This document shows positions 1 through 26,254 of a stretch of 64,000 nucleotides of DNA, piece by piece. Each line of letters opens with the position of its first letter. The first letter of the stretch is position 1. The DNA is from Lophium mytilinum (taxonomy: Eukaryota), in assembly GCA_010093605.1 (NCBI GenBank), contig MU004191.1, positions 356,816 through 420,815 of the forward strand, written 5' to 3'. The notes under the pieces were generated by a model. The model was not told the origin of the DNA and ran no database searches. It was given only the letters and a program-made list of their open reading frames with translations. A program made the position numbers and the translations under genes.

Positions 1-2922
1 TTTTTAATATATATATATAATAGTTATAGAGCTATAGACTATATCTAGCCTTAAGGTATAGATTATATCTAGAGTATAGTAGAAGAACTAGAGGTTTAAT
101 AGAATATATAGTATTATTCTTACCTATATAGGGGGTAATAACCCGGCAGATACGCTAGCTTAGTTTTATATAGTTAATAATAATAAGTTTATATATAAGG
201 TTATATAAAGTATACTAAAAAAGAAGGAAAACTAAGAGACTATTAGTACTAAGGTAACTACTAAATATACTAATTATATAGTGTATATAGTTCTATAGTA
301 GATATTATAAAATAAACTATTTTAACTTCTACTTCTATAATATACCTATAATTACCGCGTTAATAAGTATACTATATCTACTATAGGTCTACTATAAACT
401 ACCTATTTTTAATATTAATATAATCTACTTAACTATATACTTACTATAAGGCTTAGGTATTAGTAGTGTAAGCCTTAAATATAATTTAAGGCCTAAGTAT
501 TAGTAATATAAACTATAGTATTATATAGATAAATATCTATATAGTAGCGCTAATACTCTATAGGCCTGCATATATTATTAGTAATATTCTTGCATATTAT
601 AAGGTATAGAAAGGTTATAAGAACTTTTTATTCTACCCTTCTAATCTAGACTATAGAATATTAGTAGATAGTATATATTTAATCTTACTTATATTTCTAA
701 TAAAGAGATTTAAATAGAGTAGCCTATAAATTAGAGTATACTATAGATCTATAGTAGTATAATTTAGTGCTATATATATATACTAGCTAAAAGAAAATAG
801 GTAGAAAAGTATATACTTATTAATACTAAGCCCTTTCTAGCTATCTATATTTTAATATACTACTAATACTATAGCTAATTAGATATAGAGATAAGTTAGA
901 TTAGTTTTAAGATAGTATAATATATTTATATGCTACTTTATAGCTAATTTAGATGCTATTTATTTATAACTTTTCTACTTAATTTAAAAAATACTCTAAA
1001 ATACTATTATATTTATTACGCTTCTTAATATATCTAAGTTACTAGAGAAAGTATATATTTCTAGTCCTAGCTATTATATAAATTAAATAAGAGTATTCTA
1101 AAATAGGCGTGTAGGCCTATACTTTTATAATATTAGTATCTCTATACTATATATAATTAGCTAAAGCCCTAAAGTATTATAACGGCGCCCTATAATAATA
1201 TTAATAATTATAAAAAAGGGAGCACCGCCTAAGTATATATTTAGATAAATAAACCGGGCCGTTATATAGTAATAGTTAATAATAGAGTATTATTTATAAT
1301 TATCTCTAATACTTAAGTGCATAAATATATTAGGTAGCAGTATAAAATATAGAATTTTTAGCCTAATACTAAACTATCTAGATCTTATACTAATAACTTA
1401 ATAAATACTAGATTACTATTAATATAAAGGGGCTTTAGTTTCTTTTNNNNNNNNNNNNNNNNNNNNNNNNNNNNNNNNNNNNNNNNNNNNNNNNNNNNNN
1501 NNNNNNNNNNNNNNNNNNNNNNNNNNNNNNNNNNNNNNNNNNNNNNNNNNNNNNNNNNNNNNNNNNNNNNNNNNNNNNNNNNNNNNNNNNNNNNNNNNNN
1601 NNNNNNNNNNNNNNNNNNNNNNNNNNNNNNNNNNNNNNNNNNNNNNNNNNNNNNNNNNNNNNNNNNNNNNNNNNNNNNNNNNNNNNNNNNNNNNNNNNNN
1701 NNNNNNNNNNNNNNNNNNNNNNNNNNNNNNNNNNNNNNNNNNNNNNNNNNNNNNNNNNNNNNNNNNNNNNNNNNNNNNNNNNNNNNNNNNNNNNNNNNNN
1801 NNNNNNNNNNNNNNNNNNNNNNNNNNNNNNNNNNNNNNNNNNNNNNNNNNNNNNNNNNNNNNNNNNNNNNNNNNNNNNNNNNNNNNNNNNNNNNNNNNNN
1901 NNNNNNNNNNNNNNNNNNNNNNNNNNNNNNNNNNNNNNNNNNNNNNNNNNNNNNNNNNNNNNNNNNNNNNNNNNNNNNNNNNNNNNNNNNNNNNNNNNNN
2001 NNNNNNNNNNNNNNNNNNNNNNNNNNNNNNNNNNNNNNNNNNNNNNNNNNNNNNNNNNNNNNNNNNNNNNNNNNNNNNNNNNNNNNNNNNNNNNNNNNNN
2101 NNNNNNNNNNNNNNNNNNNNNNNNNNNNNNNNNNNNNNNNNNNNNNNNNNNNNNNNNNNNNNNNNNNNNNNNNNNNNNNNNNNNNNNNNNNNNNNNNNNN
2201 NNNNNNNNNNNNNNNNNNNNNNNNNNNNNNNNNNNNNNNNNNNNNNNNNNNNNNNNNNNNNNNNNNNNNNNNNNNNNNNNNNNNTAATAATTTTAATTAA
2301 TATAGCTAATATAGATAGATAATACCCCTATATCTATCTACTCTAGCTAGTACTATACTATTCTTCTACCTATACCTATATTAGCCTCTACTAGTTATAA
2401 ATACCTACATAATAAGATAAATAAGTAAGAGATTAAAACTATAGAAAAAGTTAAAAAGAATATAAGGGTTATATAAGAGATAAAAGTATAGAACTATAAA
2501 AGATAGAAAACTTAAATAGTATAAGAGTCTATATATCTAGCTAATCTAATTTATAATTAGACTATTTTATAGCCCGCCTTACTAAGGAAACTAGACTAGA
2601 ACTATACTACTTTAAGGCGGGGCCTTATTATAACCTTATACTATCTTACTAGACTAGAATATAAATAGCTTAATATCTCTATATATAGGTAGTATAGAGT
2701 TATCTAAACTATAGCTATTATTAGAACTAAAAGTATAGCTATATAGCTAAATATTCTAACTAGGTATATAGATTCTATAGAGGGGGAATTTACTACTAGT
2801 AGACTACTCTTTTATTCTTCTATCTAGGGACCTCTTTACTATAGAGGAGTACCCTATAATATAATATATAACTACTTATAGTATAGTAACTAATAGAGGG
2901 CTAGAATTATAAAAAGAAGGCC

Positions 2923-5389
2923 TAAATAGTAGTAAAGAGAGTATTTTAGGCTAAGAGAGAGAAGAATATAATAGCTTAAGGTTGCGCAATTTAGTTAGTA
3001 AAGATAGAGGTATTTATTATAGATAATATAGAAAAGGGATATATACTATAGCTAAAGAAGATAGCTAGTAGGTTATTTATGCCTAAGTAGGTTACCTAAC
3101 TAGGGATAAAGTTAGTAATAAGGGGATAGCTGCGTATTATAATATTAATACCTCTATTAGGGCCTTTAACTTAGCTAGCTATCTATTTAATAATATAGAA
3201 TATAAAGTCTATAATCTCTTAATTAACTACTATTCTAATAGTATAGAAGATACTATCTAGAAATAATAGTAGAAGGTAGTAGCGCGCGTATAGTAATTAG
3301 TAGAAGTTAATATAAGTATATAAGTATAAGCTCTAGTCTAAGATAATATAATAGAAGAGGTAATTATATAGATAGAAGTATTTAATTATATAGAATAATA
3401 GAGCTTTATTAAAAGGGGGATAGAGAAAAGGTATATAACTAGCTAAAGACGCTAAGTTAATATATATAGACTATATCTAGCTAGCTCTATTATATTCTAT
3501 TATAATAAATACGCAACTTACTTTCTCTTTATTCCCTTCTCTCTACGCTACTTAATTATAATCTACTTTACTTCTCTTTATAGTTATTATTCTCGCACTC
3601 TATCTTAAGAAATAGAATATTCTTTTACTATACGCCCCCTATCTATTATTTAGTAAGGCTTAATATTACCTACTTAAATATAGTAAAAGGTAATATAAAA
3701 CTATCTCTCTCTACCCTAAATAGAGACTTACTATATAACTTAAATATACTATACTATATACCCTATCTATAGTATATATTAATATATATATAGCTAATAT
3801 ATATAACTATAGATAGTAAAGAAGTAAAAATACGCTACCTTAAAACTAATTAATATAGTAATACGCCTAGCTCCCTTAACTCTAACACCTACTAACTAAT
3901 AATAAATATATAGAACTTAATAAGTAAAAGAGAATATACTACTAGAATATTCTAAGATAGTAATGCTATATTATCTTAGCCGTCTAGCCGCACCTTATCT
4001 TATACTAGAAAGAGAAAACGCGGTATAGAGAATAAAAATAGGCATATATCTATTTTTTAATCTAGTAATACTAACTTCTGCGTATAAATAGACTTTAAGT
4101 ATAAGATTAGCTTATATATATATTATAGCTACTCTACTAAGTAGTATATACTAATAAATACCTATTAGGGTACTACTATAGTCTAAGATAAGATAGCGGC
4201 TAGAATAGAAGCCCGCAGGGCTATTAACTAAATAACTAGGTCTAATACCTTTATATTAAGCGGTCTACTATTCTTCTCTTTTACTAGCTACTTCTTAGGT
4301 ATAGGTAGAGGCACACCCGTCTATAACTATATTAGCTTTCTTAGTATAAAATAATATAGTAAAATAATTTAAATATAGAATAGTATAGATAGGCATACTA
4401 AAGTACTAACTATAAAGGTAAAATATATAGTAGTAGAAAAATAAATAAGATACTAAATACTTAGAAGTATAGTATTAGGCACTAATATAATTAGAAAATA
4501 TAGTAATAACCTTATAGCCTAGACTAAGAGTATTAGGCTAGATATATTTTAGTAAGTACTAATATAAATATAGGTAGATATCTATAAAGACTAACTATTC
4601 TATACTTAAGCTAATATCTCTACTACTCTAGACCCTTTTTACGCGTAGAAGGTATATTACTTTCTCTCTACTTCTATAACCTTATATAATAGCTAATTAT
4701 AATATATAACCTAGATTTATAATACTTTTAATTATTTCTATAACGCTATAATAAAGGTTGCTTATAATATTATATAAGAATACTATAGTCTTAGTTCTAT
4801 AACTTTAAATATTACTAGTACCGCGTTAATACTAATAAAGAATTAGAACTATCTCTTTAGAGTAGATAAAGACTAAGCTAAGGTTAGTTACTAATCTAGT
4901 ATTAGATAGCATTCTAATAGATTATAGAGGCTACTAGTAATCTTTATAGCTAAGGCTATCTAGATAGTAGTTATAGACCTACTCTTTATAGAATAGTCTA
5001 TAAACGCCTTAAAGATATAAAGATACTTAAAAGAGTTTTTTAACTCTCTTTTAGGTAATACTATTATATATATATATACTTACCTCTACTATACTATTAG
5101 TAAATATATCTTAAGCTAGAAGCGCATAAACCTAATTTATAGAGTTGCCGCTACTAGTATTAACTACTGCCCCCCTTATATAAGACTATGCTAACTATAA
5201 GCTAGAGTAGTAAATTATAATAAATATCTCGCCTAATAGCGGGCACTTAGCTTATACTATAAGTACTAACTATTATTCTACTAGTAAGAATTTATTATAA
5301 AATAGGTAGGTTAGCATATAAACTATAAAGAAGATAATAATAAGAATATATATAATAACCTTAACTACTATAATATATTAGATTTAACT
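2923..5389 (+). repeat. Copy A of an unidentified RIPed repeat (inverted partner at 6540-9006)
   Basis: The reverse complement of 6540-9006 aligns at both ends (taaatagtagtaaagagag... at 2923; ...tattagatttaact at 5389). Both segments are 2,467 bp, and the differences I inspected are mostly C/T and G/A transitions. Confidence 0.9.
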
Positions 5390-6539
5390 AAAGATATAAT
5401 ACTAGAATAATAATAGGCCTTTACTATAAGGGTGGCGAGAATAGAAGTAAAGAAGTAAAATTAGTAGTAGAATTTTATTAACTAATATAAGAAGATACAT
5501 GCGCTAATAAAGCGCATTAAGAGCAAAGTATAACTATTTAACTCTAGATACTTATTCTTACTATATTTAATTCTATCTAGCCCCCCTCTTAGGGATACTT
5601 TATTAGATATTATAGATAGTATAGGTAATTATATAAGATAGAGAGCTAAAGTATAATATACTAATTATATTAACTATAGAATAATAAGATTAATAATATA
5701 GAGCCCCTTACTAATAATAACTTATACTACTTAGCTCTAATTTATAGAGAGGCTAAGAAGAGTATTAAAATAAAGAACTACTAGAAGCGGTGCCCTCTTA
5801 ATCTCTTATTTATATAATTTAGGTAGCGGTTCTATATAAAGAAAGATAAATACAGCTAGTATAAAAATAATACTATAATTATATCTAATAAGGACTAATA
5901 TTAAAAGTTTATAGCTGCCTATATTAAGATATAGAATTCTAGAGAAGGAAGCCTACAGCTAGTTATTAAGTTGCTTAAGAGTATTAGAAATAAGGAATAG
6001 TAGTATAGAATTAGTAAATAGGGTATAAATAGACTCTATCTTATACTTAGCGTTATCTTTCTATTTTATAATATATATACCGTAATTAGATGCATTCTAA
6101 ATTACTATATAGTCTACTATCTAACGCGTAATATATATATCGCGTACTATTCTCTAGCCTAGATATCTAGCGCACGCGTTACTAGCTCTAATAGTCTACT
6201 AGAATATTAAAATTATTAAGGTTAGTAATAGTTATATAATTCTTAGAAATATATATAGGCATTACTATCTATATAATATATAAAGTCTATAATATATATA
6301 AAGTTACTATAGACTATAAAGCTCTAGTAGAGGTAGTAAGAAGAGATAACTAGATATACTAGTATAACTTTAAATTTCCTACTATATATAATAATTATAT
6401 ATTTAGTATATAAGGCCCTATCTATATTATTATCTATCTATCTATAACCTAGGTAGATTAGGCAGTTTTAGAAGGTTAGATAGAGAAGGTAGATAGCTAT
6501 ATTTATAAGAACTATAAAGTAGTTATTAANNNNNNNNNN

Positions 6540-9006
6540 AGTTAAATCTAATATATTATAGCGGTTAGAGTTATTATATATATTCTTATTATTATCTTCT
6601 TTATAGTTTATATACTAACCTACCCGTTTTATAATAAATTCTTACTAGTAGAATAATAGTTAGTACTTATAGCGTAAGCTAAGTACCTGCTATTAGGTAA
6701 GACATTTATTATAATTTACTACTCTAGCTTATAGTTAGCATAGTCTTATATAAGGGGGGTAGTAGTTAATACTAGTAGTAGTAACTCTATAAATTAGGTT
6801 TATATACTTCTAGCCTAAGGTATATTTACTAATAGTGTAGTAGAGGCAAGTATATATATATATAATAGTATTATCTAAAAAAGAATTAAAAAACTCTTTT
6901 AAGTATCTTTATATTTCTAAGGTATTTATAGACTATCCTATAAAGAGTAGATCTATAACTACTACCTAGATAACCTTAGCTATAAAGATTACTAGTAGCC
7001 CCTATAATCTATTAGAATGCTATTTAACGCTAGATTAGTAACTAACCTTAGCTTAGTCTTTATCTACCCTAAAGAGATAGTTCTAATCCTTTATTAGTAT
7101 TAATACAGTGCTAGTAATATCTAGAGTTATAGAACTAAGACTATAGCATTCTTATATAATATTATAAGTAACCTTTATTATAGTATTATAGAAATAATTA
7201 AAAGTATTATAAATCTAGGTTATATATTATAATTAGCTATTATATAAGGTTATAGAAGTAGAAAAAGGGTAATATACCTTCCGCGCGTAAAAAGGGTCTA
7301 GAGTAGTAGAAATATTAGCTTAAGTATAGAATAGTTAGTCTTTATAGACGTCTACCTATATTTATATTAGTACTTACTAAAATATATCTAGCCTAATACT
7401 CTTAGTCTAGGCTATAAGGTTATTACTATATTTTCTAATTATATTAGTACCTAATACTATACTTTTAAGTATCTAGTATCTTATTTATTCTTCTACTACT
7501 ATATATTTTACCTCTATAGTTAGTACTTTAGTATACCTATCTACGCTATTCTATATCTAAATTATTTTACTATATTATTTTATGCTAAGGAAGCTAATAT
7601 AGTTATAGATAGGTATACCTCTACCTATACTTAAGAAGCGGCTAGTAGAAGAGGAGAATAGTAGACCGCTTAATATAAAGGTATTAGACCTAGTTATTTA
7701 GTTAATAGCTCTACGGGCTTCTATTCTAGCCGCTATTTTATCTTAGACTATAGCGGCACTCTAATAGGTATTTATTAGCATGCACTACTTAGTAGAGTAG
7801 CCGTAATATATATATAAGCTAATCTTATACTTAAAGTCTATTTATATGCGGAAGTTAGTATTACTAGATTAGAAGATAGGTGCGTGCCTATTCTTATCCT
7901 CTATACCGCGTTTTCTCTTTCTAGTAAGAGATAAGGTGCAGCTAGACGGCCGAGATAATATAGTATTACTATCTTAGAATATTCTAGTAGTATATTCTCT
8001 TTTACTTATTAAGTTCTATATATTTATTATTAGTTAGTAGGCATTAGAGTTAAGAGAGCTAGGCGCGTTACTATATTAATTAGTTTTAAGGCAGCGCATT
8101 TTTACTTCTTTACTATCTATAGTTATACGCGTTAGCTATATATATATTAATATATACTATAGATAGGGTATATAATATAGTATATTTAAGTTATATAGTA
8201 AGTCCCTATTTAGGGTAGAGAAAGATAGTTTTATATTACCTTTTACTATATTTAAGTAGGTAATATTAAGCCTTACTAAATAATAGATAGGGGGCGTATA
8301 GTAAAAAAACATTTTATTTCTTAAGGTAGAGTATAAGAATAATAACTATAAAGAGAAGTAAAGTAGATTATAATTAAGTAGTATAGAGAGAAGAAAATAA
8401 AGAGGGAGTAAGTTACGCGTTTATTATAATAGAATATAATAGAGCTAGCTAGATGCAGTCTATATGCGTTAACTTAGTATTTTTAGCTAGTTATATACCT
8501 TTTCTTTATCCCCCTCTTAATAAAGCCCTATTATTCTATATAATTAAATACTTCTATCTATATAATTACCTCTTCTATTATATTACCTTAGACTAGAGCT
8601 TATACTTATATACTTATATTAACTTCTACTAATTACTATATGCGCGCTACTACCTCCTGCTATTATTTCTAGATAGCATCTTCTACGCTATTAGAATAGT
8701 AGTTAGTTAAGAGATTATAGACTTTACATTCTATATTATTAGATAGATAGCTAGCTAAGTTAGAGGCCCTAATAGAGGTATTAATATTATAACGCGTAGC
8801 TATCCCCTTATTACTAACTTTATTTCTAGTTAGGTAACCTACTTAGGCGTAAATAACCTACTAGCTATCTCCTCTAGCTATAGTATATATCCCTTTTCTA
8901 TATTATCTATAATAAACGCCTCTATCTTTACTAACTAAATTATATAACCTTAAGCTATTATATTCTTCTCTTTCTTAGCCTAAAACACTCTCTTTACTAC
9001 TATTTA
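6540..9006 (-). repeat. Copy B (inverted) of the 2923-5389 repeat; whole contig between two 10-N gaps
   Basis: As above; bounded exactly by N-gaps on both sides. Confidence 0.9.
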
Positions 9007-9299
9007 NNNNNNNNNNTCTATAACCTAGGTAGATTAGGCAGTTTTAGAAGGTTAGATAGAGAAGGTAGATAGCTATATTTATAAGAACTATAAAGTAGTT
9101 ATTAACTATAATAATTACCTATAATACTAGATTATCTATAATTAAGAATTATCTACGCAGCCTACGCGTAAATTTTATATAAGAAGTAGGTAAACTTTTA
9201 TAAAGTAGTGTAAAGCCTATAGAGTAGTAAAATGCGTAGTCTTCTAGAAGATTATGTAAGTAACTAGTATTCTCCGCGCGTTTCTTAATTTAGAAATTT

Positions 9300-12200
9300 C
9301 TAATAATAAGTATTTATATAATACCTAGTAATTACTAGAGAAAGATACTATCTATATATAGCCTAAGTACTTTAAACTAGTACTTATAGATAAAAAAGTA
9401 GAAGCTCTAGTATATACTAAAGAATAACTATATAAACCTAGTAATATTATTATAGGCCTAGCTAACTTTACTAATAATTTAGTAGCTATTAGTCTCTACA
9501 CTATATTAAAAGATAATTAATAGAAATTCTTTAAAAAGATAGACTGCACTTCTATAACTTATAAAGAACTTAAGGCGCTTATATCTTAGAAATATTAGGG
9601 CTTTCTTAATATATAGAATCTAAAGAAAGCTAATAAACTACTACTATATTATAAGGCTAAAGATAGTATAGATATTAATTACTATATTAATATTAAACCT
9701 AGTACTAAAGCTCTAGCTTAAAAGGTATATAGCCTCTTATATAATAAAATATTAGTAGTTAAAACCTTTATTAATAAAATATATAGGAAAAGCTATATTA
9801 GAAAAAGTAATAGCTAATATACTGCCCCCGTTATTATTATTTATAAGCTAGAAGAAGGCCTTTATATTTATATAGACTATTAAGGTCTTAATACTATTAT
9901 AATTAAGGCCTATAACATTTCTCTAGCTATAAAGGATACTTTAGCCTTACTTAAGTATACCTAATACTATACTAAGTTTAATATTATTACTACCTTTAAT
10001 GCTATTTAAATATAAGAGGGCGATAAAAAGTACACCGCGTTCCTTATAAGATATAGCTTATTTAAATTTACTATTCTACTCTTTAGCTTATATAATACCC
10101 TAGCAATATTTTAAGCCTTTATTAATAATATTCTCTTAAAATACTTAAATAATTTCTATATAGCTTATTTTAATAATATTCTTATTTTTAGTAAGATATT
10201 AGAGAAATATATAGGCTATATTAAGAAAGTCCTCTAGTAACTCTATAAGGCTAGTCTCTTTCTTAATATTACTAAGTATAAATTCTATAAGTAGAAAGTT
10301 AAGTATCTAGGCGTTATTATTAGTATTAATAGCCTTAAGATGGACCTAGCTAAAGTTAAAACTATAGTTAACTAGCTATAACTATAAAACCTCTATAATA
10401 TATAGGCTTTTCTAGGCTTTTATAACTTCTACTAGTAATTTATTATTACCTATTCTAATATTATAGAACCCCTTATAAGACTTACTAGAGCTAAGGTCTA
10501 TAAGTAGTTTACCTTTCTATAGTAGAAAGGGAGCTTAGAAGACTTTTTATTTAAATAAATAAAATAAGCGTTTATTAATACTTCTTAGATAGCTTATTTT
10601 AATCTAAATCTAGAGATATAGGTAGAATATAATATATCTAATACTATTATAGCTACTATACTATCTTAAATATAGACTAATAGTATTCTCCGCCCTATTA
10701 CATTTATATTCTATTAAATAAGCATAGCCTAACTTAACTATTAGATTTATAATAAAGAACTTCTAGTAATTATCCGCGCCTTTAAGAAATAGTATATAGA
10801 ACTTACTAGCTATAAATATAGTAATCTAATTAAAGTTTTTTTAGATTACTATACTCTATAATACTTTATAGAAACTAAGCAGCTTAACTAATAATAGGCT
10901 AGATAGGCTAAGTTTCTTTCTAAATTTAACTTCTAAATTACTTACTAACTAGGCAAGAATAATAGTAAGGCTAATCTACTAACTAAATGCCTAGGTAATA
11001 TACTAGATTAAGATAATAAACGCTATAAAATCTAATAATAAATAATCTTAAAGAACTATAACCTAGAACTAGAAATATATTACGCTATTAAACTAGCCTA
11101 TATTATAACTAATAGCGTTACCTATAATATAGTTTCCCTCTTAGTAATATTATATAACTTTAGTAAAGTAGAACTTAATTAGGGGGAGTTTTAAAGTAAC
11201 CTTAATAAAGAACTATAAAAGTTACTAAGGTAGGGAAAGTTATAGAGTAACCCTGCTAATAGTACTATAGAGTAAGATATAGTAGATTATATATAAGAAG
11301 CCCTCTATAATAATACTATTAGTAACGCTATTAAAGATACTATTAGAGCTAAGCTACGCCGCCTGCCTACTAATATAGTTAAAAATTATAGTATTAAGCT
11401 TAAGCTTTATAACTATATAATTTATAATAGCCTTATCTTTATTTAGAAGAACTACTTATATATTTCTACTAAAGAAGAACTTTAATTAGCTATTATTAAA
11501 AGTCTATATAAACCTCCCCTAGTTAGCTATAGTAGAACTATATCTATATATAACCGGGTTTTAATATATTACTTTTAGCTATAGATAACTAATAATATTA
11601 ACTAGTATATTAAGGCCTGCTAGCTATATAATTATATTAAATATGTATATAATATAAAGTAAGGCTTTCTTAAACTACTACTAATTTCTAAAAGATATTA
11701 AACTAATCTTATAGTTAACTTTATTAGCCTACTATCTAAATATATATAATTTAGAAGAGACTATTAATATATTATAGTAGTTATAGATAGACTTTCTAAA
11801 ATATATAAATTTATTTCTATAGTTACTATAGACGCTAAGAAAGTAGCCTAAGTCTTTCTTAAATAGGTATAGCGCACTAAAGAATATCTATAGTCTATTA
11901 TTTCTAACTAAGAAATGTAATTTATATTAACCTTCTAGTCTTACCTATATAAGTATATTAGTATAAAGCTAAAGCTCTCTACCTTCTTTTATCTAAAAAT
12001 AGATAGATAAATAGAAATTACTAATATAGGCCTAAAGTAATACCTTAGAGCGTATATTAACTACTAGTAGAATAACTAGTATAATTTTCTTACTATTACT
12101 AAATTTAAAGCTAACTTATTAAGAAACGCCTTTACTAGAGTAGCTCCTTTTATAGCTACTAAGAGCTATATTTCTAGCGCGGGCACTAAACTAGCTATAT

Positions 12201-13600
12201 AATTACCTAAGAATATAAATATACTAACTATCTATCTTACTAAGCTAGTAGATAAGCTTATTAATAAACTAGATAAGCTATATATATTTCTCCGCACGGA
12301 AATTAAATAGGCCTAGGCTAAGTAAAAGAAATATACTAACGCTAGATAATAACCCGCCTATATATATTATCTAGGCGATTAAGTTATACTTAATAGACGG
12401 TTTATTAAAATAAACCGCCTAAATAAGAAACTTAACTTTAAAAAGCTAGGCCCCTTTAAGATTCTAGAAAGCTATAAAAACAGTAGCGTATATAAGCTTA
12501 AGCTACCTAAGAATATAGAGAATCTATACTCTATCTTCTATTCTTAGCTACTTTACCTAGCTAATATAGTCCCTATAAAAAAATAGTATAATTCTAAGCC
12601 TCTACCTATATAAATAATACTAATATATTAGAAAGATAATACTAAAAAGGTTATAGATAGCTACCTAGATAGAAGACGCCTTAATTCTACTACTAGTAAA
12701 AGAGGCATACTATAATATAAAATTAAATTTATTAGATAGAATAATAAGCCCTAATAGAATAACTATAACTATACTAATAGCTATCTATACCTAGTTATAA
12801 ATTTCTACTACTATTACCTAAGAAAACCTGGCCCTTATTTATTATTCTAACTACTATTAGACTAGAAGCTAACCTTAGCTACTATTCTTACTACTATAGA
12901 CCTCTATATAACTAATATTATAGAAGCTATATAACTTAATTACTAGACTAGTAGTTAAATTAATTTATTAAGAAGGCCTAACTATAGATATATATAATAA
13001 TTAATATAATATACTAATATAGATTATTATAAGTATCTAGTAGTAGGTTAGTAGCTATAAAGGCTATATAGCTTCTTATAGCCCCGTTATAGCTAGCTCT
13101 AGTCTAGATAAATAAGGCTACTTATAGTAATACTACGTATAGTAATACTATATATAGTAATACTACAGGTAATAATACTATAAAGCTTATAAAAGAAAGA
13201 CTATACTAAAAAATAGTAAGGCTATAGAAGACTATATAAAAATAAAAAAAATAAGTAATTCTCTATAAATTAATTTATTTCCTTTATTTACTTATAGCTA
13301 AAATATAATTAGGTACTTTCTTTAATAGATATTTAAGCGGTTATAGATACTCTAGTATAGAAAGAACTCTCTCTTATAAAAGCTTTAATTAGGGGGCTTC
13401 TTTAGAGGGGGGAGATATATTATAGCTATATAATTATATATAATATATAACTAGAGATTATATAATAGAGGCTCTATAAAACGGGCGAATATTACTCCGC
13501 CCTTTAGGTTATTATAACGTCTATTCTAGAAACCTCTTTCTCTCTTATATTTATCTTTTATTAATATTAATACTATTTAATTTAATAATTCTAACGTTTT
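9300..13600 (+). mobile_element. RIP-inactivated Ty3/Gypsy LTR retrotransposon (pol: RT-RNaseH-integrase, probable chromodomain; PPT and probable 3' LTR)
   Basis: Allowing RIP transitions: RT (V)DY(R)GLN at ~9872-9892; YFNN = YxDD at 10166-10177; RNase H IY(D)KELL(A)IIRAF at 10745-10783; integrase VV(V)DRLSK at ~11777-11800; KKL(D)FKKLGPFKI (GPY/F) at ~12425-12463; chromodomain-like stretch ~12640-12820; polypurine tract agaggggggaga at ~13404-13415. RT-RH-IN order is Gypsy type. Boundaries approximate; no 5' LTR recognised. Confidence 0.88.
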
Positions 13601-15900
13601 AACCTTAAGCTCTAATATATACCTAGTAAATTAGCGTATAGATTTTCTTATAGAAAGTAGAAGGCTTTACTATTTACCCGGCCTATATATAATAAATAGC
13701 TACTAGTACTCTTCTTAGTATACTACTTTAATATTAGCCTAAAATATATAGATTTTAACAGTTTTTAATACTAATTTTAATATACTAGCAGCCTTATCTA
13801 TCTATATAATATATAACTAGTTAGCTATTATTTAATAAGTGTGCGCCTAAATAAAGGTAAGGTAATCTTAGTAGTATTTTATATTAAGATAGGGCTTAAA
13901 TATAGCTATATAGTAAGTATAGCCCTTCTAATTAAGTATTTATTTAATAGTTTTTACGCTAGTAGTAATTCTAGTATAGAAGCTAAGCTTTATATAGGTA
14001 ATAGATTAAGCCTATAAATAGCTAGTAAGAAAGTCTACTAGATACTTTCTAGCTAGAGTTCTATAAATCTTTCTATTTTAATAGTAGCTAAATTAACTAA
14101 ATATCTATAGCTTCTAGTAGATATAATATATAGTAGATAGTATAGTACTAAGTATAGTAGAAATTTACTAGTAGAAAAGTACTATATAGTTATAGAGAGT
14201 CTTTATAAAATACTAGAGCTTATATAGAATAGCTATAGGCTAAGAATTATACTACTAGTAGAATAAATTAAGGTTTTTATAAGTCTATTACTATTTCTCT
14301 ATATTATAGATTATATATTATATAGCTCTATATATATTAGTAGTCTTATACTACTACTACTAGTAAATATAGTATAGAAATACTACTAAGCTATCTTAAC
14401 TATAGTATACTAGCGGCGTAAAAGAGCTCTAATTAGATAGAATTAAGATAATTAAGGCTATATATATAGTAAGGCGAAAGCTATACTATATTTAAATAGT
14501 TAGTAATAGAGATAGTAATATAAATAGAAGTATACTACTATAGTATATTAAAGAAGAAGAAATTAATATTTAAGAAGAAATTTAAGTATACTAGAAAGAT
14601 AAATTATAGCCTAGAGAAGATATAAAGTACTTAGAGAAGGTATAAAAGAAATTAAAGGCTATAAATATAGATATACTACTACTAGATATATAGCTAGAGC
14701 TACTAGAGCTTAATATATAGCTAAAAGCTTCTATTATATTCTCTAAGAAAGAGAGAGTAGATAGCTAGTTCTATAGTATTTAAAAAAGATCTAAAAGAGA
14801 GCTAGGCCTAAAGTAGGTACTATAGTACCCCTATTTATTATAGAAGATAAATAGGTAGTAAGGCCTAAGAGAGAGTATAGTATTAAGTAGTAAAATAAGT
14901 AGAAAAAATAGATATATTTAAGATTATTAATAATTAATACTAATTATCTATAATTTAGTAGTAAAAGTAGTAATTTTAGATAGATATATATATAGTATAA
15001 TAGCTATATTATATATATATATATTATTTAATAGCTTAGCTATAAGCTTAGCTATATTTTTAGCTAATTTCTTTCTTTTTTACTATTTTTTATCTTTCTT
15101 ATAATTCTTCTTTTTCTCTATAACTACTACTATTATTAAATCTATTAAAATAATACCCGGATATCTATTTCCCAGCCTTCTAGCATATTTTTAGGGTCTA
15201 CTAATATACTCTACGCAATAATTAAGGTTAGGCGGGCGCTTAGCCGTAAGGAAACTTAGGTACTAATTTAGTTCTTAGAAAAATACTACTAAAAAGAGGG
15301 GGATAGCTAGCCTATATACGCCTCTATTATAATTATATAGAACTAGCTAATATTAAGCTTTAATATTGCTAAGAGCCGCGAGGCCCGAATTAGCTACTCC
15401 TTAGCTACTCTAGGCGCGTTGGAGGAACCTCTATATTCAGCTAGTTCGTGGCTTCACGCCAGCGCTAGGCCACCGGACGCATACAGGTGCTGTACATCAT
15501 CCCTCGGAGATCTCAGTATCGGCACAAATGGCAACAAGTATGACTGATCTGCATCAGTTGGTTGAAGAGGAAGACAGCGGGTCTAATTCCACCAGTTTGC
15601 TGATGCGTAGGTTGCTTTAACAGTCTCTTGGAAATGGGTCATGTTTGTTAGGGTACGTATCTTCTTCGAGTGGAGACGGTGCAGGCTGGGATGGCCCAGG
15701 GAATTTACAGGCTGTCCAGAATTATACGTCTATATCTCTTCCCGAACGTCCAAAGTGTGATCAAACATCATTGACAGCAGCGGCGAAAAGCTCTCCATTC
15801 TATCTACTCAAGCGCGGCTCTTCTCCGCGCCGCGCTATGACCACCTAACTTTTCTAAACTTCTTCACTAGTCCAAGGGTACATCGCTGGAAGCGGCCACG

Positions 15901-17071
15901 ATGGAGGCAAAGGGTGATGGGCACGTAGCCGAAATTCTTCACGGTATACCATTGATATTCGCGACCAAGCTTATCCTAATGCTGACTGCCTCTCGCTTGA
16001 GTGTTCGATTTCCCACAGCTTTACACCAAGCCCACCGCTCAATCGCTCCTGAATACCCTCACTCTCCTCACCTCAGCTCCTCCGTCCTGGGAATGTAGCG
16101 ACTCGGAAGAAGACTATGACATATCCGTGGGACTAAACAAACGAAGAGCTAGCGCTGCAACGAAGCCGAGGCCCGTCCAAATAAATCCAGAGGGACTGAC
16201 GAGGTACCTCACAAGTATCATCGGCAACGACTTGGGGTGGATATACGACGACAACATGAAGGAAGATATTTGGGAGGAAGCCAGCCTGCGGCTGAGTGAG
16301 CGCTCCGGGAGATCTGCCATGCCAGCCATGTCTCGCGAGTTCCGGGTTCCCACGAAGTCAGGGCGTGTGGATATCACCATTCATGAGCCGGCTCTGACGG
16401 AGGATAATATTGGCTTGAAGACATGGGCTGCTTCGTATATGCTTTCCAAGCGCCTCCATACGATCAAGCTGCCGCAAAGCAAAGACAAAGCGCCGCCCCG
16501 CATGCTCGAACTTGGATCAGGAACCGGCCTAGTTGGGATCGCTGCTGCAGCAGTTTTTGGCTCTTCCGTACTCCTAACTGATCTGGCTGAGATTACACCA
16601 AATCTTGCAGGGAACATCGAGGACAATCGTGCTGCCATCGAACAATGCGGTGGTTCGATGGACTGTGCTGTTCTCAACTGGGCAGAACCGTTCACTTGTC
16701 AGTCCTATCTACGAGGTCTGGGCCAAATTGAAGATGCGAGAAATGCTACTTACAACGGATCGTCTCCCAAATATCCTGTCATTCTCGCAGCAGACTCGCT
16801 CTACTCACCTGAGCACCCCAGATTGCTAGTACAGACAATTGATGCATGGCTTTCGCATGAGAGTACTGCCAGAGTGATTGTTGAGTTTCCATTTCGAGAC
16901 GCTTATGTTCCGGAATTAGGCGACTTCAAGACTCGCATGGCTAGCATAGGCCTCTGCGTCCTAGAAGAAGGTGAGGAGAGTGGATATGACGACTGGGCGT
17001 CGGAAGGCGGTCGCAGCGAAGTCAGGTGTTGGTGGTCGATATGGGGTCGTATACCTGAATCTGGCAGGTAG
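15901..17071 (+). CDS. SAM-dependent protein-lysine methyltransferase (METTL21/Efm2/Rrg1-like)
   Basis: HEPALTEDNIGLKTW, motif I MLELGSGTGLVG, LLTDL, ILAADSLY. ATG 15901 with a probable intron ~15944-16001 (acceptor uncertain); stop TAG at 17071. Confidence 0.85.
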
Positions 17072-19664: not shown

Positions 19665-20248
19665 TTACACACCCATCCTCGCCCTCGCTCCCCGCTTCGG
19701 TAATGTCCACGGTTCCGCGCACACAATCTGTCTCAATCAGCAACTGGCTTCCTCATATTGGATAGTTGTAGCTTACCTCGCCTTCACTATACGCCCAGAA
19801 ATATACACCCATCCCTATCATATAGTACAGCGCAGCATTGGTGGCCTGGTACTGGAGGACGGCAGCTAAGGCGCTCAGCGGGAAGATGATCAGGCGAGCT
19901 TCGATGGAGCGGTGCACGGCGGAGCCGGCGATGAACTTTAGTGGCCATTCGTAGGCGAGCCCCATGAGGCCGAGGATGAGGTTTATGATTTGGAGAGCGG
20001 GGACGGGCTTGACGGCGCCGTCGAGGTTCTTGGTGAGGAAGTCCCAGAAGATCTTAGGCCAGAAGAAGCCTTCGATTGCGGCGGCGACTTGGTCTGGGTT
20101 GATATCAGTATGGGGGTCAAGAAGTTGAAGACGGAGGTTTGAAAGCTTCAAGATGCAAGCTCAAGAGCGATTCGAAAGAGAAGGACGTACAGATGGCAGC
20201 GGTGAGGATGATGAGGCGCGCCCAGTGGTTCTTGATCAGCTTGCCCAT
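19665..20248 (-). CDS. noxD: NoxD/Pro41, fungal p22phox-like NADPH oxidase subunit (145 aa)
   Basis: Exons 20248-20191, 20093-19777, 19727-19665 give MGKLIKNHWARLIILTAAIYQVAAAIEGFFWPKIFWDF...YEWPL...YFWAYSEGEIVCAEPWTLPKR, which matches the NoxD/Pro41 family as I recall it. Confidence 0.9.
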
Positions 20249-23200: not shown

Positions 23201-23311
23201 CTTCCGTTGACCGGTGGTCGTTCCTTTGTGTTTTGCTCTCACAGCAGGGTCTTATCCATCTCCTATCTCGACTTCTTGTTCATCGTCACTTGCTCAAGCA
23301 AGACCGCAACT

Positions 23312-25113
23312 ATGATCACAGCCGCGTCACTGAAGAGGTGGTTCACCATCAAGAAGAGTCTGTTCTATATCTTGTTTTGGGGTTTTCACTGGAGCATGTT
23401 CGCATATGGATGGTATGTTTGCCCTTCTCTGTTCACTCTGGTCCCATTGCTAACCTTCAAAGGTGGAAACAAGCCGGTGATGAGCGACTAGCGGCACTAA
23501 ATGGACTCAAATTCTCCGTGTGGATTTCTCGAGGAGCAGGATTGGTGTTGTCGATAGATGTGTTGTTGATTCTTCTGCCCATGTGCAGGAATATCCTCAG
23601 GTGGATTCGACCAAAGGCTAGGTGGTTGCCATTGGACGAGTCTCAATGGTTCCATCGACAAGTCGCCTACGCTTTGCTTTTCTTCACAATTGTTCATACC
23701 GCTGCTCATTACGTCAAGTAAGTTCTCATCCCTTGTTCTTCAGGTTCTGGGCTGACTCTAGTAGCTTCTTCAATGTTGAGAAGACACAAGTCCGCCCAGA
23801 GACGGCAGTGCAGATTCATTACACCCAAGCGGGTGGTATTACAGGTCATATCATGCTTCTCTGCATGATGCTAATGTACACCACCGCTCACCATAGGATA
23901 CGCCAGCAATCTTTCGAGACTTTCTGGTATACTCATCATCTTTTCATCCCATTCCTGTTGGGCATGTACACTCACGCCACTGGCTGCTTCGTGCGTGATA
24001 GCGTTGAGCCGTTCTCACCCTTCGCCGGTGCCGGTTTCTGGAACCATTGCATTGGCTACGAGGGATGACGATGGGAGCTTGTTGGCGGCGGATTGTACCT
24101 CATCGAACGTCTCTACCGCGAGATTCGTGCTAGGAGAGAGACTCAGATCGTCAAGGTCGTCCGTCATCCTTATGGTAAGTACATGATATCACATACTATT
24201 GCCATAGCTAACTCTCCCAGACGCTGTGGAAATCCAGTTTACCAAACCATCAATGAAGTACAAGCCAGGACAATGGCTATTCCTGAATTGTCCCGACGTG
24301 TCACACAACCAGTGGCATCCGTTCACCATCACCTCATGTCCCTTCGACCCGTACGTCAGTGTGCACGTACGACAGGTCGGGGACTTCACCCGAGCACTCG
24401 CTGATTCACTTGGAGCCGGCCAATCGCAATCGAAGCTCTATGACGAGCTAGATCCCATGGGAATGTACGAAGTTGCGCTGCAGCATGGCCAGAAGATGCC
24501 AAGACTACGCATCGACGGCCCCTACGGTGCTCCCGCCGAGGATGTCTTCGAGAACGAAATTGCCGTGCTAATAGGAACTGGTATCGGCGTCACGCCCTGG
24601 GCCGCCATCTTGAAGAACATCTGGCATCTCCGCCTCTCTCCCAACCCGCCTAAGCGTCTCCGCCGTGTCGAGTTCATCTGGGTCTGCAAGGACACCAGCT
24701 CGTTCGAATGGTTCCAAGCGCTGCTCTCTTCCCTCGAAGCACAGTCGATGGGCTCGCCCAATGGCGGTGCCGAGGGTGCTGACTTCCTCCGTATCCACAC
24801 CTATCTCACCCAACGCATGGACGTCAACACTGCTAACAACATCGTGCTCAACTCCGTCGGTACCGATAAGGATCCGCTAACAGAGCTGAGCAGCCGGACC
24901 AACTTCGGCCGGCCGAACTTCTCGCGTCTGCTCACTGGCATGCGCGACGGCATCATGGACCGCAGCTACATGAACGGGCTCGAGAGCTCGCTGCGGACAG
25001 ACGTCGGAGTCTACTTCTGCGGGCCCAGCGTTGCGGCGCGGGATATCAAGAAGGCGTGTAAAACGGCGACGTGTCAGGAGGTCAACTTCAAGTTCTGGAA
25101 GGAGCATTTCTAA
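23312..25113 (+). CDS. noxA: NADPH oxidase NoxA/Nox1 (gp91phox homolog) with an in-frame TGA at codon 220
   Basis: Exons 23312-23412, 23463-23717, 23765-24174, 24221-25113 (552 aa if read through). Haem His (WFHRQ..VHTAAHY, YTHHLF..YTH), FAD motif HPFTITS, NADPH motifs DGPYGAP and GTGIGVTP, FCGP, C-terminal KEHF. TGA at 24066-24068. Confidence 0.93.
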
Positions 25114-26254
25114 GCTCCCAACCCTACTTAGGTTGTACTTTTCCCTTGTGTCGCTCAGTGTACGAATGGGGTTCTCTAGCAAGAAAGGATGAGGTGATGC
25201 TAACAACGGCAGTCAATACCAGGGCAAGGCAAGGCAAGGCAAAGGCGTTTGATCTCGTTTTCTCCAGCTACATAGATTCTTGTAGGCTGCTGTATGCTAC
25301 GTTATGTGTATTTCTCGAGAGTCTTTCAGCGAAGAGCAGCGTTTTAGCGTGAGTCTCTATGAGTAGGATGCATCACGGAGGGGGAATTGTATCGATGGGG
25401 AAACTCTATTGAATATGAATATCTTTCTGCAACAATTCTTTTTGGTTGATAAGGTGGTTGTCCGCATTGAGGCATGCTCTTGGAGCTTCGTTCGAGAATG
25501 AGGCTGACAGGCGGTTGCTGGCGCAGAGGATGTGTCGGGTTTGATTGGATTGGTAATTGGTATCACCATTTTTATCTGTCACCTTTCGCAATCCTCGGCT
25601 CGAAATTGGTTGCATAATGCCTCAATGTGCGCCTGAGAGATCTCTTCTCTCGTTCACGAAATTGGGCTGCTCTCCAGCCTGAGCAGTAGCTGTGCTGGGG
25701 TGAGCACATCCTAAGCTGATACTAAGGTGGAATTGTAACCCCAGCCCTGGGCGCTACATAAGAAGTCACCCTGCATCGGACGGCCTACAGGCCTGCAGCT
25801 TTGTCAATTCTAGTTTCCGGGCCCTGGGTCTTAAGTAAACTTGCTCTCAGATATGTTACGGGCAGTTCTACAAACAGCCAAGGATCTTTACTCTGTAAAC
25901 GTCAGTAAAAAAAGGAAGGTTGTCTCCTTAGATCACGTAATGTGACTTTTGGGGTGTAGCTTCACGAACACTAGATGTTCTATAGAAGACCGCTACAAAC
26001 GGGCATGATTTTCCATTTGTCTGCCTTGCGAAAAGAACAAATATGGATTGGGAAAAAGCGGTATCAGCGCACTCCGCCTGCATTAGGGCTAAGTCTCAGC
26101 CTTGCGTCCTACCTCCATCCTCACTCTTTCCTACCTCTCCCCTTTCCATTATACAACAACTCTCTACTAGCCATTCCATTTTCCGCTTCTTATGAGCAGT
26201 TTCCACAGCTCCCTTTGCATCGCTACATGCGTCGCCCCCCATCTCGGCTAGGCT

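Follow-up and report, generated by a model that had tools for sequence, protein, structure and literature searches.

The window analysed here is a 64,000-nt stretch of contig MU004191.1 from Lophium mytilinum, and it carries a gene for a fungal NADPH oxidase A (NoxA), noxA, whose third exon is interrupted by an in-frame TGA (Table 1). The gene model was derived from the sequence, and its joints were then compared with the spliced RNA contigs of two public runs, X3 and X4. The spliced coding sequence (CDS) comprises four exons, 1659 nt and 552 codons, with the internal stop at codon 220 and a terminal TAA, and is separated by introns of 50, 47 and 46 nt that begin with GTATGT, GTAAGT and GTAAGT and all end in AG. 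In the frame of exon 3, positions 24060–24077 read GAG GGA TGA CGA TGG GAG, within the wider reading CAT TGC ATT GGC TAC GAG GGA TGA CGA TGG GAG CTT; translation across the stop gives HCIGYEG-stop-RWELVGGGLYLIER, and the exon ends 107 nt 3′ of the TGA.

Apart from this codon, the gene has the properties of a Nox1-type, gp91phox-like fungal NoxA. Its Pfam domains occur in the expected order (PF01794, PF08022, PF08030), with exon 4 matching FAD_binding_8 (PF08022, E 7e-22) and NAD_binding_6 (PF08030, E 2.3e-20), and its product has neither an EF-hand nor a long N-terminal extension, the 552 codons comparing with 535–575 aa in 85 homologs. Exon 3 is 88–90% identical to proteins named ‘NADPH oxidase A’ from Saccharata proteae and Macrophomina phaseolina and to other NADPH oxidases, and ~90% identical to NoxA of Aulographum and the Botryosphaeriales; identity is 87% to Cenococcum geophilum over the full length and 88% to Glonium stellatum over exon 4. 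Judged by this NoxA homology, the source fungus is a Dothideomycete. What the gene lacks is an uninterrupted frame, the TGA at codon 220 being present in both DNA and mRNA, and it is accordingly noxA by descent, yet, as written, specifies no complete NoxA. An initial annotation of the window had reported an in-frame TGA with no GT–AG intron around it, which proved right in every detail, and the RNA contigs are unspliced there; the FAD and NADPH motifs and KEHF end that it placed downstream are seen by Pfam and in the translation, and the G-W-R-W-E that it gave for fungal NoxA at the stop site agrees with the tryptophan (Trp) found there in all listed homologs.

Table 1. Features of the noxA region, with positions counted from the first letter of the window.
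Feature	Position	Strand	Evidence or remarks
AT-rich block, 16–33% GC	1..15500	.	2-kb GC windows; ~8 kb upstream of noxA
Methyltransf_16 (lysine methyltransferase-like) open reading frame (ORF)	16001-17071	+	between AT-rich block and noxD
Zinc-type alcohol dehydrogenase, ADH_N + ADH_zinc_N	~17.7-18.4 kb	+	between AT-rich block and noxD
noxD (Pro41/p22phox-like partner)	19665..20248	-	CDS 20248-20191, 20093-19777, 19727-19665; 145 codons + TAA
noxA exon 1, ATG at 23312	23312..23412	+	sequence; joint 23411/23412 to 23462/23463 in RNA contigs X3, X4
noxA exon 2, first part of Ferric_reduct membrane domain	23463..23717	+	PF01794 E 4.2e-05 (24 bits for the exon 2 fragment alone, under Pfam’s 28-bit cut-off); RNA joints
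noxA exon 3, remainder of Ferric_reduct, holds TGA	23765..24174	+	PF01794 E 6.6e-09; RNA
In-frame TGA, codon 220 of noxA, then CGA	24066..24068	+	sequence; DNA and RNA contigs
noxA exon 4, FAD- and NADPH-binding domains, KEHF end, TAA	24221..25113	+	Pfam; translation
Hydrophobin match, Pfam Eas PF22354	28638-29321	-	Pfam, E 4.6e-06, just above curated cut-off

We assessed the stop in contigs of four runs (X1–X4), taken from a public-run search of 14 rows and aligned to positions 23300–25120. X1 and X2 are DNA runs of one sample, a possible source of the assembly, and their contigs were built independently of the deposited genome; X3 is a run of a separate study with a different organism label and X4 bears a third label, both being recognised as RNA solely by their spliced joints. 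X1 and X2 each yielded a single contig (word depth 163 and 146, respectively) that is identical to the window and has A at 24068. The X3 contig (3,043 nt, depth 315) shows 0 differences over all four exons and carries the UGA. The three GT..AG introns are removed exactly in X3 and X4, indicating that X3 is correctly spliced mRNA, and its 100% identity to the window suggests that it probably comes from the same strain, making it an independent library rather than an independent isolate. Alternative splicing around the stop is ruled out, X3 and X4 both crossing exon 3 without a joint. The TGA is genuine in both DNA and mRNA, and noxA is still transcribed and correctly spliced. Consensus errors classically show up as a lone base difference within a conserved codon, and a base-call error was among the explanations offered by the initial annotation; with A in two rebuilt DNA contigs and in the RNA contig of another study, and 0 other letters at the site, a sequencing or assembly artefact hiding a true G at 24068 is excluded for practical purposes, and we regard it as extremely unlikely.

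The X3 contig also overhangs the aligned interval by 1,164 nt past 23300, on the 5′ side of noxA, and by 201 nt past 25120; with colinearity with the window assumed, the 5′ overhang suggests either that noxA has a very long leader or that a transcript from upstream overlaps it.

We then compared the codon with its counterparts in relatives. Among the protein matches listed, the position aligned with the stop is Trp in 120/120 longer and in 120/120 fragment-length homologs; ORFs truncated at the stop would rank below the 120 matches listed, and their absence among these is uninformative. A protein-guided metagenome scan, evaluated for the best 80 of 190 relatives, gave TGG in 80/80 loci (79 by motif and one, L063, by eye), and the next codon is CGA in 28/80 (27 by motif, L063 by eye), indicating that TGG-CGA is a common ancestral context. 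No locus among these 80 is closer than 88%, an exact metagenome scan with a 30-mer of window positions 24069–24098 returned 0 matches, and no other isolates were found, the top protein matches among those listed being 90%, 92% and 89% identical. The only close relative found is the spliced X4 contig (depth 6.5, ~96% identical), which differs from the window by A>G at 24068 and so reads TGG. The stop and its context are not kept among relatives (TGG in X4 and in 80/80 loci, Trp in 240/240 listed homologs), and this uniformity points to a single G-to-A transition at 24068 on this lineage. The codon thus has the attributes of a recent nonsense allele: the stop replaces a conserved sense codon, is borne out by the runs and is missing in relatives.

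Run X4 additionally contains several short, loose-ended contigs of <90% identity that fit only the conserved FAD/NADPH part of the gene (24508–25118); these probably represent a NoxB-like paralog or other organisms of that sample.

The remainder of noxA shows no decay. The spliced translation, its stop entered as X, was aligned with the 85 full-length homologs of 535–575 aa (35 of the 120 listed homologs were excluded by length). Of the 653 columns obtained, 226 are invariant or hold a single deviant, and the sole singleton deviation of the window is the stop, compared to up to 6 in other sequences. The residues conserved across the family (heme-binding histidines, FAD and NADPH motifs) are accordingly kept, with no deviation in the 226 columns save the stop, and the THH...H stretch aligns with human NOX2. 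The 40 differences from X4 that were tallied (of at least 63) comprise 36 synonymous changes, 3 conservative missense changes (L105M, M455I and T494S) and 1 stop. These 40 give a ratio of nonsynonymous to synonymous change (pN/pS) of ~0.03 in the part 3′ of the stop. Neutral drift of that part on this lineage’s half of the divergence predicts ~35 nonsynonymous changes, compared to at most 2 observed, and at the 5% level neutrality over 19% or more of the branch is ruled out, in a test that assumes equal branches and takes the tallied X4 differences as its only input.

The partner gene noxD, which the initial annotation had likewise described as undecayed, is divergent from noxA and lies ~3 kb away. 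Its three-exon model, with splice sites inferred from the sequence, is open and intact, and the Pfam family PF24853 (DUF7727), which we take to be NoxD/Pro41, is spanned over its whole profile (profile 21–139 in exon 2, E 7.6e-41; profile 1–21 in exon 1). The absence of decay in both genes indicates that either the stop is recent or the gene is still working.

We consider it likely that the TGA arose recently as a nonsense mutation, that the resulting noxA allele is confined to this strain or lineage, and that any readthrough is basal and unselected. Among the explanations in the initial annotation, a recent strain-specific null is the best supported, given TGG in X4, Trp or TGG in the other relatives, and the undecayed state of noxA and noxD. 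In this strain or lineage an ancestral TGG would recently have become TGA through a G-to-A transition of base 24068, and normal termination at the UGA would leave a 219-residue fragment that has the first five membrane helices, those that bind heme included. Missing the final membrane helix as well as the entire FAD/NADPH dehydrogenase domain, such a fragment would not transfer electrons from NADPH to oxygen. The UGA-C context may pass a few per cent of ribosomes, which would reflect ordinary leakiness rather than an evolved switch. Exon 3 has matches to human NOX2 chains before and after the stop (query 9–78 with NOX2 156–225 of 8kei_B, and query 103–136 with 265–300 / 270–305, the latter a weak match of 10.9 bits), which places the stop just ahead of the stretch leading into the dehydrogenase domain; the NOX2-aligned stretch after the stop is presumably the last membrane helix. 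Because a 219-residue fragment would have no FAD/NADPH domain, the strain is most likely a natural noxA null or severe hypomorph. We also considered reinitiation at the next in-frame ATG, in exon 4, and reject it by inference, as its product would lack both the final membrane helix and the beginning of the FAD domain.

This is an ordinary kind of event in a new instance, a nonsense allele of noxA; our literature search found no described NoxA nonsense, edited or recoded allele. The allele resembles laboratory noxA, nox-1 and PaNox1 mutants and nonsense alleles of human CYBB (NOX2) in truncating a Nox2-type enzyme before its dehydrogenase domain. Such truncation would be expected to abolish regulated superoxide production and, in fungi, to cause defects in fruiting bodies and hyphal fusion. 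Unlike these, the allele described here is natural, occurs in a genome-sequenced strain and is accompanied by no decay as yet in noxA or noxD. The strain may be missing a regulator that is key to hyphal fusion and to the formation of fruiting bodies, which could explain sterility or an odd culture morphology, and it would offer a possible natural noxA mutant obtained without transformation. For annotation, the genome would be scored as lacking NoxA or as carrying a pseudogene, while the lesion is a single recent base change in one strain or lineage and not a lineage-wide loss.

Several observations weigh against a simple recent null. The allele is seen in one strain or lineage only, and the synonymous–nonsynonymous tally covers 40 of the window–X4 differences, which number at least 63. 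The absence of a second lesion, together with an intact noxD, fits function via recoding equally well, and in yeast no stop context is leakier than UGA with a C after it (PMC4748822, in the sections drawn on here). The stop precedes the last exon junction by 107 nt, a position at which one might expect nonsense-mediated decay, and yet a spliced full-length mRNA is present; contig depth is unfit for ranking mRNA abundance. Finally, run contigs lose rare variants, so that a minority G at 24068, whether in RNA or in some nuclei, would be invisible.

This last point bears on the possibility that the null allele is compensated, by a second intact noxA copy or by a minority of nuclei with TGG, an arrangement that would also account for the absence of further decay. 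We consider it quite unlikely, as each DNA run gives one contig at the locus that is identical to the window, no variant at 24068 appears in X1–X3, and no protein among the matches listed is >92% identical; NoxA is moreover single-copy in most ascomycetes. Selected readthrough, in which a near-cognate tRNA decodes UGA-CGA so that full-length NoxA is made and the stop serves as a dosage gate on reactive oxygen species (ROS), would fit the UGA-C tetranucleotide, the strong purifying selection on the rest of noxA and the presence of spliced mRNA. Against it, the stop is unconserved, with TGG in the ~96% identical relative X4 and in 80/80 of the best 80 loci. A C directly after any of the three stops makes it exceptionally leaky in yeast, with UGA-C favouring Cys-tRNA and UGA-A favouring Trp-tRNA (same sections of PMC4748822), so that a readthrough product would often be without the invariant Trp. 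In Ustilago and human cells, according to the passages cited from PMC4207609, the readthrough element is UGA-CU(A), efficiency is set mainly by the +1 and +2 bases, and other sites need downstream structure. The noxA stop matches at +1 (C) but has G rather than U at +2, and we found no structure on its 3′ side: the fold of 24066–24174 (109 nt) has −30.8 kcal/mol compared to a shuffle mean of −33.2 (z +0.60), with 144/200 shuffles at least as stable. Known cellular cases add C-terminal extensions rather than rescuing an internal stop. The UGA-CU(A)(G) stops of fungi and animals that generate cryptic peroxisomal isoforms share with noxA a UGA followed by C, as do the leaky yeast contexts (PMC4748822), yet in the cited passages they are natural, conserved gene ends to which a short extension is added (PMC4207609), whereas the noxA stop is internal and any active enzyme would require readthrough of it. 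Some basal readthrough yielding trace full-length NoxA, possibly with Cys for Trp, is plausible by analogy with yeast, but nothing marks the stop as a selected readthrough site; of the programmed readthrough put forward in the initial annotation, the UGA-C context is the one element that the site bears out, and we judge selected readthrough to be unlikely.

Sexual-stage adenosine-to-inosine (A-to-I) editing of UGA to UGG would restore Trp, as at the corrected stops of Fusarium and Neurospora premature-stop-correction (PSC) pseudogenes. Fusarium graminearum and Neurospora crassa are established cases of such stop-restoring editing, and the portions of PMC10776026 used here give G-to-A change of an ancestral TGG, as inferred for noxA, as the origin of most PSC sites; they also record that at some PSC sites premature stops are present in Pezizomycotina of other classes, with editing there ‘yet to be determined’. 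The noxA stop is like PSC pseudogenes in being an in-frame stop derived from TGG by G-to-A in an intact, transcribed gene tied to sexual development, and the absence of decay also fits editing. Four features of its context differ from theirs: the stop codon itself, the −1 base, the +1 base and the absence of a hairpin loop. The stops of the 71 F. graminearum PSC pseudogenes are given as UAG/TAG, mostly derived from TGG, and UGA/TGA occurs 0 times in the main text (PMC10776026); the noxA stop is UGA and is not common to relatives. At edited sites, in the excerpted results of PMC9600606, U at −1 is strongly enriched and the other three bases are depleted, as are C and U at +1; editing is predicted best by the −1 base, and predicted hairpin loops hold over 62% of the sites. 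Rather than the favoured U at −1 and A or G at +1, the noxA site has G at −1 and C at +1, and a 65-nt minimum-free-energy fold around 24068 puts the A as a one-base bulge in a stem instead of in a hairpin loop, the fold being weaker than shuffled sequences (z +1.10, 179/200 shuffles at least as stable). The host, a Dothideomycete by NoxA homology, would also fall outside the lineages with known editing machinery: as far as the cited parts of PMC11087585 and PMC7306014 go, records of sexual-stage mRNA editing come from Sordariomycetes and one Pezizomycete, its basis, the Tad3-Ame1 interaction, arose in Sordariomycetes, and an independent origin is proposed for Pezizomycetes (Pyronema). The X3 RNA contig shows A, although this is one contig in which minorities are hidden. 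The A-to-I option of the initial annotation is thus unsupported, and we hold editing to be very unlikely; if true, mRNA editing would for the first time be seen in a class other than Sordariomycetes and Pezizomycetes. A wider proposal is that the UGA is under selection as a conditional NoxA gate, with full-length enzyme arising only on bypass of the stop, through regulated UGA-C readthrough or through an undescribed Dothideomycete A-to-I editing that accepts a UGA with G at −1. This is compatible with the pristine noxA and noxD and the spliced mRNA, is opposed by the unconserved stop and by the poor contexts for either process, and seems to us improbable. A deliberate bypass of the stop, which present evidence makes unlikely, would be the first case of a ROS-producing enzyme gated by internal recoding, and the gate model would place the switch for ROS in fruiting and hyphal fusion at decoding.

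General reassignment of TGA was addressed with a control scan of 40 frames between 15.5 and 64 kb, each with a single stop and >=70 open codons on each side; Pfam matches were obtained in 4 of these and none spanned the stop. With the stop read as X, only the noxA frame had Pfam domain matches on both sides of it. There is no sign of general TGA reassignment in this control, which is a weak one. A tRNA scan of the window gave 0 genes, and the hexamer TGACTA has 10 matches in the window compared to 33 expected, none at the stop site, which is uninformative. Selenocysteine at the TGA is rejected: the position is Trp everywhere, and fungi are without selenocysteine machinery (PMC4207609, in the passages cited).

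In the spacer between noxD and noxA (20.4–23.3 kb), no Pfam match was obtained in the frames tested. We also considered leakage of repeat-induced point mutation (RIP) from the AT-rich block as a source of the G-to-A change. It is unlikely, since the block is 8 kb distant, the site is CpC on the other strand, and there are no neighbouring transitions; CpC is the least favoured RIP context. The block itself abuts a gene-rich region of 47–59% GC that begins near 16 kb, and the transition between the two looks like a RIP-type isochore boundary.

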